Of a DNA stretch of 64,000 bases, positions 3,301 to 31,814 are shown piece after piece. Made by a program: the position numbers and the translations under genes. The DNA is from Octopus vulgaris (Eukaryota). Positions within the stretch are counted from its first letter, which is position 1, and every line of letters begins with the position of its first letter. The DNA is taken from contig OX597822.1 in the NCBI GenBank assembly GCA_951406725.2, positions 15,934,001 to 15,998,000 of the forward strand. Reading direction: 5' to 3'. The notes beneath the pieces are model-generated. The model worked only from the letters and a program-made list of their open reading frames with translations, was not told where the DNA came from and made no database searches.

Positions 3301-3343
<43 letters not shown>

Positions 3344-3532
3344 TATACATATATATATACATATATACGACGGGATTCTTTCAATTTCCGTCTACCAAAT
3401 CCACTCACAAGGCTTTGGTCAACCCGAGGCTATAGTAGAAGACACTTGCCCAAGGTGCTACGTAGTGGGACTGAACCCGGAACCATGTGGTTCTTAAGCA
3501 AGCTACTTACCACACACCCACTCCTACGCCTA
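3101..3532 (-). mobile_element. tRNA-derived SINE, family A, near full length with internal microsatellite
   Basis: Minus-strand head GGCGTAGGAGTGGGTGTGTGGTAAG (A box)...GGTTCAGTCCC (B box), then CORE-like CCTTGGGCAAG, internal (TA)/(TG)n and tail GAAACAAGTAAAAGAG. Low-complexity candidate TSD TATATGTAT at 3091 and 3531. At least 8 related copies occur in the window. Confidence 0.9.
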
Positions 3533-4479
3533 TATGTATGTATATGTTCTAAAAGATAGAGCTCTTTATGTCACAACGCATTAGTATAAAGATTGTAAAT
3601 ACATAGATGATGATAGGGAAAAATACATAGAAAGTTCACACCATACAATTCACACAATCACACGGGGCCTTAAACCTAAATGAAATAAATTACAATGGCT
3701 ATTGAACATGTCCTACTTTGTTTCCAGTTATAATATTCCGATATATCATCCTGGTTACTGACAAGATAAGACTAAAAGGCTGTTTCATCATAACGCATCT
3801 AATTTTCTCAATAAACAAAGCTAATTACTAATTTATCGCTAATTTGAGAAAATTTAAATGTCCAATTCTGTTTCGCATCTTTGCAGGGTGAACAGACAAA
3901 TTAATTGATGAATTCCGGCATTTTCGTTTCCTCAATCAAGCTCAGTTTTGATCAGAGGAGATAAGCATGATGAAAGGTTACCTACCGTTTCTTATCCTGC
4001 ATGAAAGATTAATAGAATATAGAATAGATCTTCTGCAACACACTACACAGAACACTACCACAGATTTTAACGCACAAATTCTGACTGTTCTCATTTAAGC
4101 ATTGCTTCTAGATACATGACGTCATCACAGATTTTATGCTATGATACTGCCTTTAATATTCTAATTATTTTTTTGTAACTAAGGATTTGCCATACATATT
4201 TCACACTTACAGCTTAGAATTCTTTGTTCACTATCCTTCAAGAGAAGAAAGGAAAGGGGGTAAACGAAGAATACGACAACCACCTCAATCAGCCTACCTT
4301 CCAATGTAGCCTCTGCAGTTATGTCTGTTTGTCCCAAATTTGACATCAGTAAGATTGCAACTGAAGTTGTCACTCGCAGACACACACACACACACACATA
4401 CATATCTATATATTTGTGTGTAAATATAAATATACATACATACACGCATGCATACACAAATGAATACATAGATACATAG

Positions 4480-4481
<2 letters not shown>

Positions 4482-4510
<29 letters not shown>

Positions 4511-4528
4511 CATACATACATACATACA

Positions 4529-4558
<30 letters not shown>
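4482..4558. repeat. (TACA)n microsatellite
   Basis: Direct reading. Confidence 0.95.
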
Positions 4559-4560
<2 letters not shown>

Positions 4561-7179
4561 AATAATGTTGTAAGATTTTCGATATGAAAGAATACAACCC
4601 AAACTAGAGCGACACTTTCGAAATAAGTCGTCGATGTGTGTATATTTATATAAAATGACTACAGCAAAAGAAAAGGAAAGCTGTTATTGTCTGGCTTGAT
4701 CCAATGTATAAAGCAGAAACTAACGACAGGAAACCATATATATATATTGCCTTGTTTATTAAATGTTGTTTAGACAGATGAATTATCGTATTAAAGAAGT
4801 TATAGCATTTTAACAATGATTTCTAATCCCATATAAATAATGCCAAATAAGATCTTTGTAAGAATAAAAATAAAGAATGAAACTTCATATAGACGTTAAA
4901 CCGGGCCCAAAACATTATCATCACCAGCAGTTAAGGAAATTATATTATTCGAAGTATCCGGTGGACTGCAAGCTATAAAATTACAGTCATATGTAAGTCC
5001 ATATATACCTCAGACGTATATATAAATATTCAGCATTAAGAAATGCCTCATCAAACAAGACCAATATGGATTTCAGTCAATGTTTCCTCGCAGAAATTAC
5101 GAAATTTCTTCCTGTGGATAATCCCATAAAATATTTTTTATGCGACGAATGTAATGATTCTACATATTACAGCAGAAATAAAATAAATGAAATACAGGAC
5201 GATTTTCAAAGTATTTAGATATAAGAAAAGCCAACTCGGTCATGCAGAAAAACGCCCACTTAAAGGGACCATATTTACATTTTCATAAGTGAAGGTAGCA
5301 TGCTTATTTGTACAAATTTCGCTATTTTCCAAGAATTATCATCAATACATTAGAATGTCTGGCAGAAAATGTATGTTATGTCGTGCATTAGATATTCGCT
5401 TCACCAAATTGTCAAATACAACCGCGTTTGAGTCCAAACATGATATGATGTTTATACACACACGCACACACACGCAGACACACACATGCATACACACTCA
5501 CACACTCAAACACTCACACGCAAATACATAAATACGCATAGAGTGAAAGAGAGAAGAAATAGTTTTATTTCATTGAGTACTTAGAACTTGGAAGATTTAT
5601 CAATTGGAGAACAGCACAGTTTTAGCGTAGCTTTTTCAGAATGTTATATATATATATATATACATAAATATACATGTATGTAGGTGTGTTCGTGAGTAGG
5701 AAGTTTAAATCTCACAAAGTATTTATTGATGGGACAAATGTAGGCTGAAATTGGAGTTAAACATTTACTGTGATTTCTAGTGTCACTGGCGCATTGAACC
5801 TAACACTCTTTTATTACTTATATAGAAAAAATAACGCAAAACGTCATTAAAGGGAGGGAGTGCTTAGGTACTAATGGTACAATTGTTTTTAATATTCCAA
5901 AATGTGTTTTTCATTTATTGGTTTCTGAAATGCGATAAATAGGTTCAACCTTGACGCAGACAAATTGAAATATAGCTGAAAGGTAGAACTGAGTGGAATT
6001 AAATATATTATGAAAAACGGAAGAAAACAATAAAATATATAAATCAACCAATGTTATTTATTCATGTTTTCTTTTCCGTATTAAATTCCGTCTGTTTACG
6101 TCTTCGCTCGCCTGCGTTTGATGCTGTTTATCTCTTGCCTGGATCTATCAAATTTGTGAAATCCTGCCAAGTCTACTTTGTATTTCATTATTTCGATATC
6201 GATAAGATGAAATCGCGGTCAAAGGTAGTGGGGCCAATATTGTCAATAATACTCTCCACTGAAAATGTTATTTGTTCAATTTTATAATTTCTGAATTCAA
6301 ATGCTTATTAGAATTAGATAATGGAGATTACTGAGAAAATAATATTTCAATATGACGGAATGATAACTGTTTGAAAGTATTTTGTTGATGGAGTAAAACT
6401 GGTTAAAATTAGAAACAATTGAGTGTAGAGTTACTAATATGATCTGATTAATTATATGGTGTCTGAAATAAGAACACTCTTGTTGAACGGTGAAGAAACG
6501 TACCGATCGAACAGACACGTAAAGAGTTATCTATTTTCGTATTTTCACAAAAATACGCAACACACAAATATATCATTACAAACAAAGACAATTGTGAATT
6601 TTAACCCTTTGGTAGTTCACAATAAATTTTTTGTCGCTATTGGCTTTCATAAATAAACATAAGGCCTCCACCAATGTTGATTTGTATAAATGAGAAGACT
6701 AGCTAATAGTATATTTCATCTCCATATAATTCGCAGAGTAGTGCAGTGTCATTTCACATTTTCTCTATGAAACAGATTTGAACGAAGAGATATGAAAGAG
6801 TAGAGTTTAAGAGACGAAAAATGTTTCATATTGAAGACAAAATTTATTTACTCCGTCGTTCCGCGAGAAAGAAGAACCAATATTAATTCTTAAAAAATAA
6901 GCACATAAGGATAAAATGATGCGAAAACAACGCTTGCTGCTATTGCTGCTTCGAGGCATCTGGTTTATATGTCGTCAGGAATGTGTCCTCAATCAAGACT
7001 ACGCACGATGGTGGCAAAAAAGTGATTCCTATTTAAACACTGAACTTATAGAAATTCTTCGGAATCAAGACGCGTACAGAAACGAAATAGATAGGGCAAA
7101 GAGTTCAGGCTATCACGATGATTCTCTACGGTTCCTTACTGGATTTTGGTGACTGTAATATAGTTATTGTGGATTCACG

Positions 7180-22885: not shown

Positions 22886-23120
22886 TTCTTTTACTTGTTT
22901 CATGACTGTGGCCATGCTGGAGCACCACCTATAGTCGAGCAAATGGACCCCAGGACTTATTCTTTGTAAGCCTAGTACTTATTCTAACGGTCTCTTTTGC
23001 CGGATCGCTAGGTTACGGGGACATAAACACACCACCATCGGTTGTCAAGCGATGTTAGGGGGACGAACAGATATACGAACGTATACTCACACATGCATTT
23101 ATACATACATACATACATAC

Positions 23121-23152
<32 letters not shown>

Positions 23153-23273
23153 ACGATGAGCTTCTTTCAGTTTCCGTCAACCAAATTCACTCACAAGGCT
23201 TTGGTCGGCCCGAGGCTATAGTAGAAAACACTTGCCCAAGGTGCCGGAACCATGTGGTTGGTAAGCAAGCTAC
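22886..23273 (-). mobile_element. SINE family A lacking its first ~25 nt and joined to a Tx1-like element
   Basis: Matches the 3101 copy up to GGTAAGCAAGCTAC (23260-23273), where the A-box part of the head is replaced by the 3' tail of the ORF1 element. Confidence 0.9.
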
Positions 23274-25374
23274 ATTATTTCATCGAATTGACCATGAAGG
23301 TCGAACACAGATAAACGTAGCTGCTGGCTGGACAGAGATATTAATGTGTATGAAAACGACAAAGATGGAAAAAAATGGGAAGGGCACCGGCGCCCGCCGA
23401 CCGATAACCCCTCCCAATAACTGTTCAATTTAAATCAATATAAATAAAAAATTACAATTACAAATTACTAAAATATATTTTTCATTATTCTTCGTCTTCC
23501 TCATCCGGGCACCCAAGTAAGTTTCCTGCCGCCCGCAGGGAAGCGTGCATCGTCAGGCCCGGACCGAGGAAAATAAAATCTTCTTTGTTGCAGGTCTTCG
23601 TGACATCAATCAGTTCTTTCTTATTTACGACCTCCGTAGTCACCGGCGGAGGCCAACTTGGACAGTCAATACAGGTCGAGTCATATCGCTTTCGCTCTAG
23701 AAGGCTGTCCAAGTATAACTCAACAGGCCTTCCCTTGTGATAGAAAATTACAACCTCTTCCTCACAGAGAGAGGTTTCATCCTGCTCTGTCAGTGGCACA
23801 ATTCCCACTGACAGAGCCACTCGTTCCGGTGGCACACTTCCCACCGGAGGAACATCGGGTTCGGTCGGCGGCATAGCGACATCCACTGACCGTCTCTCGT
23901 TTCTCTTCTTTCTCTTTTTCCTTCTTTCGGTTGCGGGAGTCGGGGCCTCCGTCGGTACGCCCGAAGAGTCCTCCTCCTCTCCCACAACCTGCACGTCTCC
24001 TAGTGAGCAACCACCGTTGCTCACCTTTCTCTTTCTTCTCGCTGACGTCAACGCCTCAATGACTTCCTCCGTTTCTCCCTGCAATGGGAGAGCGAAGGAC
24101 ACCTTCCCCTTTTCCTGCTCCGGAGCCTTACCATGGCCCTGGGGGCAGTCCTTCTTGACATGGTCTGACTCCCGGAACGAGTAACAGTTGGGGGCGGGGC
24201 GACCCTCAAGAATCACTGGATACCTGGAGCCAGCCATCCTCAAAAATTCGGGGATGGTCATTTTGCCTGCGGCCACTGGGATCCTCAGGGTCAAAGTTGA
24301 ATTTGCACCCTCCCAGTTGAGCGCAGCCGTCACTCTTACATTTAAGAGCCTGGGCCCGTTATCATCCAGGCCCCGTCGGATGGTATCTCCTATCCACCTC
24401 GCCTCTATTCCCAGGGGTAGCCCACATACCCAGACTCTTATCACCTTCCTTCTGCAGTACGACGGGAGAAAAAAAATTTCCTTTCCTTCCAAAGGCTGAC
24501 TTGCAAAATTGCAAGCCTCCTCCGTAGTGTCAAACAGCAACCACGCCGTTGCATGCCTGACACCCCGGGATATATGTTTTACAGGGGACAAATAGTATTT
24601 TAGTTATTTTTTCAATGGTTTGTTTTGGGAAGACGGTGATGGTATTAAGAACTTTAGAGTAAGTTCTAACCACCATATCTTTTAACCACTGCTTGGGTGG
24701 GACGATCTCCCACTCCAAACAGTAGTCGTATTTTTTATCATTTTATCTGCCATGTCGATAAAACACAGTTCAAACAAGGAAAAGAAAAGTCACTCAACCA
24801 AAAACAACAAAAAGTCTTTGAACACAATAAAAATTGTTTAAATGTTCAACTAAAATTGAAAGAAATAAAATACGGGTCCAACTAAAATTGTTCAGAAAAA
24901 GAAAAGAAAAGACAGCAGTTCAGAAAATAAATAAATATTCTACAATTCTCCACGGCAGAAAATGCAATTTTCGAGCTACACGGTACTCCCAGCTCACTTG
25001 CAGCCTTCAAATCTCTTGATAATCCTCATGGTACAGTACTTCCAGCCTTTCGGGTTCAAAACCACGCACAGCTTGCAAGCACCAATTTTTTCTAAGATAA
25101 CTCTAGTGAAAATATTAACCTTGAAGTTCTTCACTTGCTTGTTAACAAGCACAATCATAACACCGCCAAGAATAAGCGAAAATGACCCAGAGCTGGGCAG
25201 AATATTCTGTAATAGAAACACAACATACAATAAAAACGACAAGAAAAAAACAAAACGTCTTACCTTGATGGTGACGTTTTTCCTCAAAGACGGAGCTAGA
25301 CAGCTACACGTCTTCCCTTGTTCACTGAAGCAAGTAACTGGCAAATACGCATGTGTGAACGGTCAGCAACCTAC
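23274..25374 (-). mobile_element. ORF1-only (HAL1-like) L1/Tx1-type non-LTR element
   Basis: About 620 bp of 5' region, a gag-like ORF1, then about 210 bp of 3' region ending ...CATGGTCAATTCGATGAAATAAT. There is no EN/RT after ORF1. Confidence 0.7.
23485..24753 (-). pseudogene. Tx1/L1-like ORF1 (gag-like nucleic-acid-binding protein), two N-terminal frameshifts
   Basis: 368-aa open frame with VWVCGLP...YPVILEGRPAPNCYSFRESDHVKKDCP (zinc knuckle Cx2Cx4Hx4C with one C to F change) and basic RRKRK/RRKKRKKR tracts. The N-terminus continues in ORF 24530-24718 and at an ATG at 24753. Confidence 0.78.
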
Positions 25375-26300
25375 TTTATTTCATTAAATTTGCCATGACG
25401 CCATTACAAAGAGGGGACGAACAAAGACAAACAAACATAAAAAGGTGAAGTAGCTGTTAATCGATTAAAAAACAGATTCGGATGATAGGTGACTAATGAG
25501 ACAATATATATGAAACAATGAAACAATATATATAGTTTAAATTTTTTTTTTATTTTACGTTCATTTTGATTTGCAATGCAACCCTAAAGGCATCCCGCCA
25601 CCTGGGTAGAACCTTTACTTTTCATCTTGAATGCACTTACTTGGTGCCAATCACACCCAACTTACTTTCCACAGGTTTCCTTCTTTTAACAAATATACCC
25701 CGTGACAGACACCTCTTCTCCCACCTGATCTTACTATTGAGGTGGTAACTAAAGAAGCTGACCAACCCCTGACCAGAGACAAACGTACCTGTCACTATGC
25801 CTTTCACGCGCGTCTTCCATACTGTTTCTTTCAGTATGGCTACTACGCAGAAAAAACAGGCCTTCCTTTCCTTGCTCAGAGAAGGAGGTGGCACGATCTT
25901 GATGATAGACTCAGCCGATAGCTGTCCTCTTCCCATCACTGACATCAGTTGTTTGACGAAAGCTATCAGTCCTGATAATTCCGGACACTCCACGAATGCG
26001 GGCAAGACGGTTTCCCTATCCTGCCCACATCTCGGACATGTCGGCGAGACGGCACTTCCGGAAGCACTGCCAAGCCAGGGATTTCTGGTAATTATCGAGA
26101 TACGCCGGCCCGAATGTTCTCCTGAACAGGTTGATTAACTGATTTTCATCGTAGCCCAGGGTATCCACCAAGGCGTCTTCAGACATGGTCTCTACTACCC
26201 GCTATAAAATCCGCGGTGGAACTCCTGCTGTCGGCATTGACTGCCCGAGAGAATAACTGAAGTGCCTGACGGCACACCAATTGACATAGATTCGGAGACA
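25375..26300 (-). mobile_element. 5'-truncated Tx1-clade LINE: ORF2 C-terminus (zf-RVT) plus 3' UTR
   Basis: Minus-strand frames give LGYDENQLINLFRRTFGPAYLDNYQKSLAWQC and TCPRCGQDRETVLPAFVECP...KETVWKTR (Cx2Cx7-8HxxxxC zf-RVT, H to P). Stop at 25637; the 3' UTR ends CATGGCAAATTTAATGAAATAAA. Confidence 0.85.
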
Positions 26301-26699
26301 TTGTATTCACCTCAACAGACGACATTGATTGGTTGAAATTGCCGAAATGCAAAAAATTAAACAACAAATAGCTTAAAAACTACAGAATTTTCTCAAGAAA
26401 GTCAAGAGAAAAAGATGTTTTATAAAGACATTCTACCAGTATACGAAGTTTAAAAGTGTTTAGTTACAAAGAAATTATTTTAAAAATCTGCCGGCCAAAG
26501 CGAAAAGATCCGAATTCACTTAGTTTCTCTACGAGGATGTCAATCGTTTCTGTTGCCACCGCGGCAAACGCCAAAAGCTTTTTAACTGTTTCAATCCCTG
26601 TATTACTCTCTGCGAGAGCACACTTCTCATGAATTATTTCGACCGACATTATTTGGTCGAAATTATAACACAGCAAATTATGAAAAATAGTTTTTCAAA

Positions 26700-27025
26700 A
26701 AAAGGGAAACCTATAATTTTTTACTTTTTTTCCCTCTCAACGAAGACAACAGTTCAAATCCCACCTCTGCCTACAACGTTCGAAATTAATTTTTTTTTCA
26801 CACAATAATAAAAATACAGTATCCCAAGAAACGGGAAACCTATAATATTTTTTTCATAACAACGGGGACAACGGTTCAAATCTCACCCCCACTAGAGGCA
26901 GGTGACACAATAGAGCCTACAACGGCTAACATTTTTTTTTCACACAATAATAAATTGATTATCGCAAAAGACGGGAAACATATTTTTTTCCTCTTAATAA
27001 TATTATATTTTTTTCCTCTTAATGA
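26700..27025. repeat. Diverged tandem repeat, about 2.3 units of 130-140 bp
   Basis: GGGAAAC recurs at 26704, 26833 and 26973. GACAAC.GTTCAAATC, GCCTACAACG and TTTTCACACAATAATAAA each occur twice. Confidence 0.75.
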
Positions 27026-30164: not shown

Positions 30165-30548
30165 AAAGCGGCGAGCTGGCAGAAACGTTAGCGCGCCGGT
30201 CGAAACGCTTTGCGGTATTTCGTCTGCCGCTACGTTCTGAGCTCAAATTCCGTCGAGGTCGACTTTGCCTTTCATCCTTTCGGGTTCGACGTAATCGACT
30301 TAATCCCTTTGTCTGTCCTTGTTTGTCCCCTCTATGTTTAGCCTCTTGTGGGTAGTAAAGAAATAGGTATTTCGTCTGTCGTTACGTTCAGAGTTCATAT
30401 TCCGCCGAGGTCGACTTTGCCTTTCATCATTTCGGGGTCGATAAATAAAGTACCAGTTTCACACTGCTGTTGATGTAATCGACTTAATCCCTTTGTCTGT
30501 CCTTGTTTGTCTCCTCTATGTTTAGCCCCTTGTGGGCAGTAAAGAAAT
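30165..30548 (+). mobile_element. SINE family B (Nin-domain-like), 1.8-mer tandem insertion
   Basis: Head GGCGAGCTGGCAGAAACGTTAG and body GAGGTCGACTTTGCCTTTCATCCTTTCGGG. A second headless unit starts near 30366. 19-bp TSD ATATT(G/A)CAATATGGTAAAT at 30146-30164 and 30549-30567. Confidence 0.92.
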
Positions 30549-31814
30549 ATATTACAATATGGTAAATGCTTTCGTACAAGCGCCTCGTCCTTTTCAGAGA
30601 AATTTTTATGCATATTCACGATGGAATATAAATCCTTCGGAAACAATATGATTATTGGGTTATTGTCAATTTTCTCAAAGCTAATATTTGATTTGTTTTG
30701 CAAACTCTGATGATGTAATCTGATTGTAAGTTAGTTCCTTGCATGCAGTATTTATTCATTAATGGAACACATTTCATGGTGTCAAATGTAAACCTCTGCT
30801 GATATTTGCGCTCTTATACTTTTTTTGTATATAGCTCTGCATTGGATATTGACTGTAGTAATGTATTTCGTAACATGAACGCATAGAGTTTAAAATATCA
30901 CTTATAAATTGTGCATTATACAGGACAGTACACAACCATACACAAACCCATAAATATATTATGTATGTGTTTTTTTTTCTCTCTATTTTCAGCTCAGAGC
31001 AGCGGCCATGCAGATGCACCGCCGTTAAGAATTATCTCTCAGAAGTGTTTATATATATATGATATGAGTGTGTTCATGTGTGTGTGTGTGCGCATGTGCG
31101 TATGTATGTATGCATACATGTATGTATTAGACTTGTGTTTTGCGCTTTAATAATTGTCAGGTGTGGTGATATTCTCGCCTGAAGAAACAGCCACATAGTC
31201 AGAATGAAGCTAAATTTTCTCTTTCAATAAACCATATACTCTCTATGTATGGAACATTCTAGAATTTTACACATACACATGCACACACATGCACACACAT
31301 ACACGTTTAAATGGAACCATCATTTTGTGGGAGATCATCCGGTGAGAGATAAATACAAATTGAGAGACACTGTATTAGAATAAGAGATATTAATAGTTTC
31401 TCTAACCCTAACCCTAGCTTCCCTTCCGGAACATCGACAAAAGGAAAATCATTAAGCTGGTTAGCCACGTATGTGGTCTGAAGGCGCGTACTGTCAAAGG
31501 GACCGTAGCTCTTATATTCTCTCACCATTATTTTTATTCACCCTTCGTCTTTTCTTTCTACTTTTTGCATCGACCTTCTTGGTGTTTCTAGTGGTTTCTC
31601 ATGAAATAACGTCTTGGCTTTCAAATAGAAAAAAAGCCAGGTTCGAAGAGCTTTTTTCAAGTCACGTCATAAAAGCTGCCTAACCACCTGTTTTAATGGT
31701 GTGAAATTCTTAATACCTCATATTTTAATACACTGTACATTATATGATATATACATATATGCATAGAGAGAGAAAGAGGAGGGGATAATTAAATAGATAA
31801 ATACACACACACAC

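Follow-up and report, generated by a model that had tools for sequence, protein, structure and literature searches.

A two-unit stack of a deleted Tx1-like LINE and an ORF1-only element at a SINE insertion site in Octopus vulgaris

Organization of the stack

Two retroelement units lie head to tail on the minus strand of the window (the whole 64,000-nt stretch of Octopus vulgaris DNA analysed here, positions 15934001-15998000 of contig C9), and their features are collected in Table 1. Read along that strand, the order is the 5′ part of unit A, a high-copy repeat, the 3′ part of unit A, GTAGGTT, unit B, and the body of a SINE, whose first ~25 nt are absent upstream of the stack within this window. 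The preliminary description had started from an ungapped match of 31 out of 38 bases between positions 23260-23297 and 25361-25398. This match is real, given that the next-best 38-mer pairing in the window, on either strand, has fewer than 24 matches, and it reflects an insertion site and a 3′ tail that the two units have in common: 24 of the bases are element tail, and the 14 that follow are target site or target-like element start. Both units do end, as had been proposed, in the tail …ATGAAATAA(A/T) and then GTAG(C/G)TTGCT(T/G)ACC. Among the secondary motifs thought to recur, CAGCTAC and TGTTCG.CC are found in both tails, although at different distances from the end, while GGCGGG..GCC is exact only in the upstream unit. 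It had not been recognized that an abundant SINE supplies, with its body, the flank common to both units.

The upstream unit (A) had been read as the end of an ORF2 unit and does finish in an ORF2 C-terminus, but it also retains a 5′ UTR and ~45 codons of ORF1. Since it keeps its 5′ UTR, the start of its own ORF1 and the ORF2 C-terminus, it is a complete element minus ~4 kb rather than an ORF2-only unit. It represents an older copy of an autonomous family (77–85% DNA identity to ORF2-bearing copies), in which zf-RVT reaches only E 0.08 (Pfam) in the ORF2 C-terminus; the ORF1 start was identified by tblastx to the ORF1 of L068, and the 5′ UTR is 77% identical to those of the older autonomous copies L230 and L062. 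The constant boundary at 26287 was considered as the 5′ end of the family and rejected, being the deletion break of this copy. The repeat sitting at the break, also seen in other loci (L082-L110), has a left end that is fixed and is often duplicated on itself in inverted orientation.

The downstream unit (B) is ORF1-only, as first described: it has no frame other than the ORF1-type one, which two frameshifts interrupt close to the beginning. The layout of this ORF1 comprises a conserved N-terminal region of ~200 aa, a degenerate CCHC knuckle, a basic linker, and a C-terminal domain. The start of its 5′ UTR is also found after a SINE head in another copy (L006), and its tail hairpin, GACC-TTCAT-GGTC, is a compensatory variant of TGCC-N5-GGCA. 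Neither Rfam nor ARAGORN found a tRNA or a relevant RNA family over the window region, returning only microsatellite noise.

Table 1. Features of the stack (window coordinates)
Feature	Position	Strand	Remarks
Target SINE, body and 3′ part (SINE with tRNA-like head)	22903..23273	-	Same sequence 3′ of nearly all A and B copies
SINE insertion site GTAGCTT GCTTACC, the downstream one of the duplicated target copies	23260..23273	-	
Unit B, full-length 2,094-nt ORF1-only element, older subfamily	23274..25367	-	82–88% identity to nearest copies
Shared ~40-nt 3′ tail of unit B	23274..23313	-	Hairpin at 23302-23290
B-type ORF1 of unit B	23485..24753	-	Both frameshifts within first ~150 nt
5′ UTR of unit B, begins with target-like GCTGACC	24754..25367	-	
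Target core GTAGGTT separating units A and B	25368..25374	-	Same junction type in other stacks
Unit A, 3′ part: frameshifted ORF2 C-terminus, 3′ UTR, tail	25375..26286	-	Stop at 25639-25637
Unrelated high-copy repeat (~230 nt) at the unit A deletion break	left edge 26281-26287, right edge 26514	-	93–96% identity to many loci
Unit A, 5′ part: first ~45 codons of A-type ORF1, preceded by a 5′ UTR that contains short tandem repeats	26515..26998	-	ATG at 26649

The SINE target and its occupancy

A and B elements alike enter the SINE head at a single base, bearing out the proposal that ORF1-only units and the ORF2 family have a recognition tail (~40 nt) and a target site in common. The 3′ flanks are, as anticipated, not random: throughout the genome (2.8 Gb) there are 1,018 exact filled junctions and none for a control pattern, together with 52,945 exact empty sites (34-mer), the filled-junction pattern missing a family with a different tail (family X, see below). 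The first 60 filled junctions in order on contig C1 comprised 30 B-type units, one of a second ORF1-only type, 14 ORF2-bearing copies, and 15 without a coding match, giving a ratio of ORF1-only to ORF2 copies of 31:14. Of the 15 lacking a coding match, nine were nearest to B-type sequence, one to an A tail, and five matched nothing (two of them look like chance matches in another repeat). At contig level an empty allele would look like any other empty SINE copy, as both give an identical joint.

Insertion is accompanied by target duplication. The same 7-mer is present at both ends of 50 out of 61 solo units, locus-specific variants of the SINE have been duplicated at two loci (L148 and L038), and 5′-truncated copies show duplications of 8–14 nt counted from GTAG (L048, L010, L073, L283, and L285). 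Full-length copies begin with 6–7 target-like bases. These often read GCT(A/T)AC(C), also at loci with a different downstream target, which indicates that they come with the element; as a consequence, every junction again reads as target.

The SINE head has no tRNA match in Rfam. Compared with 30 tRNA loci, it is weakly similar to tRNA-Lys-type genes (three out of 300 shuffles scored as high), and it shows A- and B-box-like motifs, judged by eye. tRNA-derived SINEs of octopus are cited in the available text of PMC4758252, and the target SINE was not matched to a named family.

An autonomous two-ORF LINE family

Young full-length copies of family A measure 5.45 kb and carry their own ORF1 and an APE-RT ORF2. 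Of 20 copies extended upstream, 17 form a young family, 96–99.6% identical over 5.2–5.5 kb plus the SINE body, with the layout SINE head, ORF1, ORF2, tail, SINE body. The 17 young copies begin immediately 3′ of the SINE head …TGTGTGGTAAGTAGCTT or, in a single instance, of the tail of another element, and insertion is sequence-specific. The ORF1 product (~467 aa) has a CCHC knuckle (zf-CCHC, E 2e-5) and is encoded directly before ORF2, whose 1,133-aa product contains Exo_endo_phos (5e-12), RVT_1 (1e-27), and zf-RVT (1e-8) in Pfam and has L1 ORF2p as its best relative of solved structure (E 9e-67). Older SINE-targeting families (L229 and L230) share this layout, and two further copies (L036 and L062) are internally deleted like unit A of the window.

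In two of the six loci scanned for a sister LINE family, whose ORF2 is 65% identical to that of family A, the element stops exactly where a U2 snRNA gene begins, at its first base. Abutting U2 genes in the way Keno does, this sister family lends indirect support to placing family A in the Tx1 clade, of which it is a putative member. The arrangement is seen at L219:6545-6738 and L220:6564-6757; L219 also has a copy further upstream, after which come the first U2 bases and then the next element. Another sister family (L222 and L225) has in both loci a similar unnamed repeat 3′ of the element, a possible third target. Elsewhere in the window, two head-to-tail copies of a different SINE at 30214-30549 (plus strand) have a 3′ end that aligns with the tails of the sister LINE families L222 and L225, and this pair was likely mobilized by a Tx1-like partner.

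An old clade of ORF1-only elements

The proposal that ORF1-only units constitute a separately inserted, multi-copy class is upheld. Among 98 distinct junction-bounded coding units, 71 were B-type and none of these contained ORF2, 24 had an A-type ORF1 together with ORF2 (one of them being a merged pair; units with an extra T were missed by the junction pattern and counted later), and the remaining three were ORF2-only units, all 5′-truncated. The same picture emerges from 71 long open ORF1 frames. Of the 47 B-type frames, 46 run into the tail and none into ORF2 (one is unresolved), as the preliminary description had suggested looking for, and 23 of the 24 others run into ORF2, the exception belonging to a 1.5-kb unit (L160, see below). 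ORF2 matches were absent from 40 widely fetched B loci, and seven sites at which B and ORF2 matches lay close together proved to be stacks that include a complete A element.

One could regard the ORF1-only units as one-off or recent deletions of the ordinary LINE, with an ORF1 that is merely decaying, and internally deleted copies certainly exist (unit A of the window, L036, and L062). However, the B-type ORF1s form a clade of their own (100/100 in a 17-row tree), with 54–86% identity among lineages and only 22–32% to all sampled ORF2-linked ORF1s (homology at E 3e-15), and the young B families have fixed ends, are 96–98% identical within, and maintain open frames of 416–430 aa. Among ~12 B lineages the median dN/dS was 0.21 (65 of 66 pairs below 0.5, median dS 1.24), compared with 0.13 and 0.16 for controls from autonomous elements, which suggests that purifying selection has kept the B ORF1 functional. 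For the copies sampled, a deletion origin is scarcely credible, the least probable of the readings considered here.

Another possibility, and the one that had been put forward at the outset, is a split element in which ORF1 and ORF2 move as separate, mutually dependent units. The abundance of ORF1-only units and the selection acting on their ORF1 would fit it, as would the state of the young A copies, where ORF1 is full length in 2/23 and ORF2 in 7/21, so that many ORF2-intact copies are without a whole ORF1 of their own. The idea of two travelling halves nevertheless fails at several points. In 24/24 units with both types of ORF, an own-type ORF1 stands directly before ORF2; full-length ORF2 copies, for which it had been asked whether they have an ORF1 of their own, carried one in every case examined, and it is under selection between families (dN/dS 0.13). 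Nor is the ORF1 of the ORF1-only units the detached ORF1 of the ORF2 family, but a distant paralogue (26% identity over 200 aa). As for the damaged young ORF1s (L065-L079 and L211-L217), they are broken in 21/23 copies by recurrent 1-base losses in four homopolymer runs, in two partly by other changes. With 17 of 19 copies placed on the tree, three of these runs required 5, 4, and 3 changes against 5.6, 3.7, and 4.5 when shuffled; one run follows the tree more closely (3 changes against 5.8, reached by 11/500 shuffles). As the breaks are mostly 1-nt homopolymer losses and mostly off-tree, recurrent slippage or assembly error is a simpler explanation than complementation. Inheritance from dead-ORF1 master copies was also considered and is unsupported. 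Altogether we hold the split element to be very improbable; the ORF1-only units are likely hitch-hikers and not one half of a divided element.

With the N-terminal 215 aa as query, the search for B-type ORF1s scored the top 150 out of 10,418 candidates (56–100% identity), 70 of them being fetched, so that an autonomous element with this type of ORF1 may exist as a rarity. No such autonomous parent was found in the loci fetched from this search or in 13 older or divergent endonuclease matches, two of which (L222 and L227) had no detectable ORF1 type. A protein search against 1.84 billion representatives gave a single protein below 1e-30, from Octopus sinensis, followed from 5e-22 by matches that include Octopus and Argonauta proteins, known from protein sequence alone. 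In O. sinensis an annotated protein is 64% identical to a B-type ORF1. The nearest named relatives come from Octopus species and are annotated as “uncharacterized” genes, which is how B-type ORF1s appear in octopus annotation. Contigs from two other organisms cover the Y family in 29 of 30 bins. One 2,083-nt contig spans most of a Y-family unit; it derives from a run only guessed to be RNA and is not counted as evidence.

Pfam found nothing in the ORF1 of window unit B, 8 of the 13 B proteins in the alignment had a zf-CCHC match below the cut-off, and a PDB profile search returned only weak zinc-knuckle matches. AlphaFold models had a pLDDT of 36 from the single sequence and of 42 overall with an alignment. 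The sole confident region, at residues ~321–400, is a conserved C-terminal domain predicted as alpha/beta (pLDDT 61–85). A structure search with the model gave no clear match among solved structures (best Z 4.9), which does not prove a new fold.

A second ORF1-only family of 1.5 kb uses the same site (L160, oriented 3301-4816, L216, and L243) and has a very short 5′ UTR. Its ORF1 is 36–41% identical to autonomous ORF1s, closer than to the B clade, and judging from these comparisons it is a separate origin of ORF1-only elements at one site. The starts of 5′ UTRs are also swapped among ORF1-only families (L155, L159, L126, and others), one start being found on three different bodies.

The shared tail contains a hairpin

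A and B elements resemble each other only in their final ~40 nt. In 61 of 90 distinct tails (shuffle mean 4.4, maximum 11), a stem of 4 bp with a loop of 5 nt ends 12–19 nt before the 3′ end. Across 16 representative tails, 95% of cells pair and three out of the four pairs change on both sides, the stem variants being TGCC/GGCA, TGTC/GACA, and GACC/GGTC (the last one in the subfamily of the window). The covariation score was reached by 0/500 shuffles, and since the six two-sided changes stem from only two lineages the covariation is good, not deep. Single tails fold little better than shuffles (z 0.3 to -1.9). The comparison of the window tail with the autonomous tail over a 260-nt UTR scored 22–26, no better than the shuffle maxima of 26–27, and the tail of window unit A has one mismatch in the hairpin.

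Stacks and the placement of family X

Head-to-tail stacking, which had been proposed from the window, is found in longer arrays that mix families, with nine units on contig C10, at least eight on C1, and seven on C5. It is unevenly distributed: in the C1 sample only three units had an upstream tail junction and two a downstream element. Instead of repeated insertion, the arrays might stem from duplication in tandem or from the copying of read-through transcripts in a single block. In this direction point the dominance of a single family in the 7–9-unit arrays on these three contigs and the recurrence of X-then-Y pairs on several contigs. Yet families are mixed within arrays, and units of an array differ by 0.4–2.4% while copies on other contigs differ from 0.2% upward, so that neighbours are no closer to each other than to copies elsewhere, which favours separate insertions. 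In addition, the 5′ ends that lie behind family X are of six or more kinds, with differing junction variants. A block origin is consequently unlikely, though less so than the two alternatives discussed above.

For family X, 41 loci gave a total of 59 exact tail junctions. The SINE-body junction pattern occurs 12 times for X against ~158/218 for family Y (Fisher p 6e-13; the prefixes differ slightly). Reading the X loci, 27 of the 41 lie ahead of the 5′ end of another element, 13 on the SINE body, and one on neither. The expectation for occupied sites, obtained by setting filled sites against empty ones, would be ~2%, a rough figure that relies on two different exact patterns and ignores chromatin.

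A passenger clade that probably borrows ORF2

The explanation that we consider highly probable is a two-unit stack made of a deleted complete Tx1-like LINE and, following it, an ORF1-only clade member that likely borrows the ORF2 of the LINE through the tail hairpin. Trans-mobilization of the ORF1-only units by the ORF2 protein is what we infer from the shared tail, site, and duplication, all of them sequence features. The ORF2 endonuclease would nick the SINE site and so prime the reverse transcription of whatever RNA carries the hairpin in its tail. ORF1-only RNAs would have to coat themselves in cis with their own product, and the retention of ORF1 under purifying selection could be explained in this way. 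Transcripts would start inside the upstream duplication, the short match helping 5′ joining. Each insertion would rebuild the site, with later insertions landing ahead of earlier ones and stacks growing by separate events.

A more ambitious combined reading is possible, although we regard it as doubtful. It takes the B clade as an ancient, independently evolving ORF1-only lineage, whose own ORF1, with a C-terminal domain of no recognized fold, would steer or help the borrowed ORF2; family X would home in on occupied sites (27/41 against ~2%), and the B ORF1 might complement autonomous copies with a frameshifted ORF1. If true, X would be a parasite targeting the 5′ junctions of other retroelements.

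Each component of the system has a precedent. Non-autonomous LINEs that retain ORF1 are described, in the text available of PMC5786205 and PMC5753468, for HAL1 (L1 clade), HeT-A (Jockey clade), and Ag-Sponge (CR1 clade), and the clades named there as having such elements are Jockey, L1, and CR1 (PMC5786205). As far as these accounts go, they resemble the B elements in having only ORF1, keeping a LINE 3′ end, and needing the reverse transcriptase of another element (as would be the case for B), and HeT-A forms head-to-tail arrays at a fixed target like the octopus stacks (PMC5537684, available part). In contrast to what is described for these three, the octopus elements have a Tx1-like partner and insert at a single base within a SINE; ~12 lineages coexist, with an ORF1 only 22–32% identical to that of the partner and just ~40 nt of tail shared; and the site is also used by the second, separately derived 1.5-kb family. 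Dictyostelium TRE5-A.2, from what is accessible of PMC5391098, comes close as well: it keeps ORF1 without ORF2, has the target preference of its partner TRE5-A.1, forms tandems at occupied targets, and is mobilized in trans. It is, however, a direct TRE5-A.1 derivative landing ~47 bp upstream of genes for tRNAs, while the octopus ORF1-only elements have diverged deeply from their partner and cleave at a fixed sequence within a repeat.

Regarding the partner, the target-specific Tx1-clade LINEs in the accessible part of PMC4494074 are Tx1 (in Tx1D), Tx1-Mar with SINEU (in Mariner-N4), and Keno (U2 snRNA). Like family A they are of APE-RT type and insert into another repeat, with non-autonomous passengers that share the target and insert in tandem, and the octopus sister family ending at the first base of U2 genes recalls Keno. 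They differ, as described there, in that the octopus target is a SINE head and its passengers are protein-coding ORF1-only elements and not SINEs. For Octopus vulgaris, 13 recently active L1-Tx1 families have been counted, and the portion available of that report gives no targets (PMC13282606). Our search of the published literature, with Repbase and Dfam outside its scope, turned up neither an account of ORF1-only elements of Tx1 type nor one of a Tx1 family targeting an octopus SINE. The class of element is already known; the combination of Tx1-type with SINE-targeting and the depth of the ORF1-only clade are without precedent found in print.

The clade offers a natural many-lineage test of the cis role of ORF1 for LINE RNA, apart from ORF2. 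It also bears on the minimum tail that an ORF2 protein needs for a passenger, here a 4-bp hairpin within ~40 nt. Finally, a SINE with more than 50,000 perfect sites is a safe landing pad for a site-specific APE-type enzyme, of interest for targeted-insertion tools.
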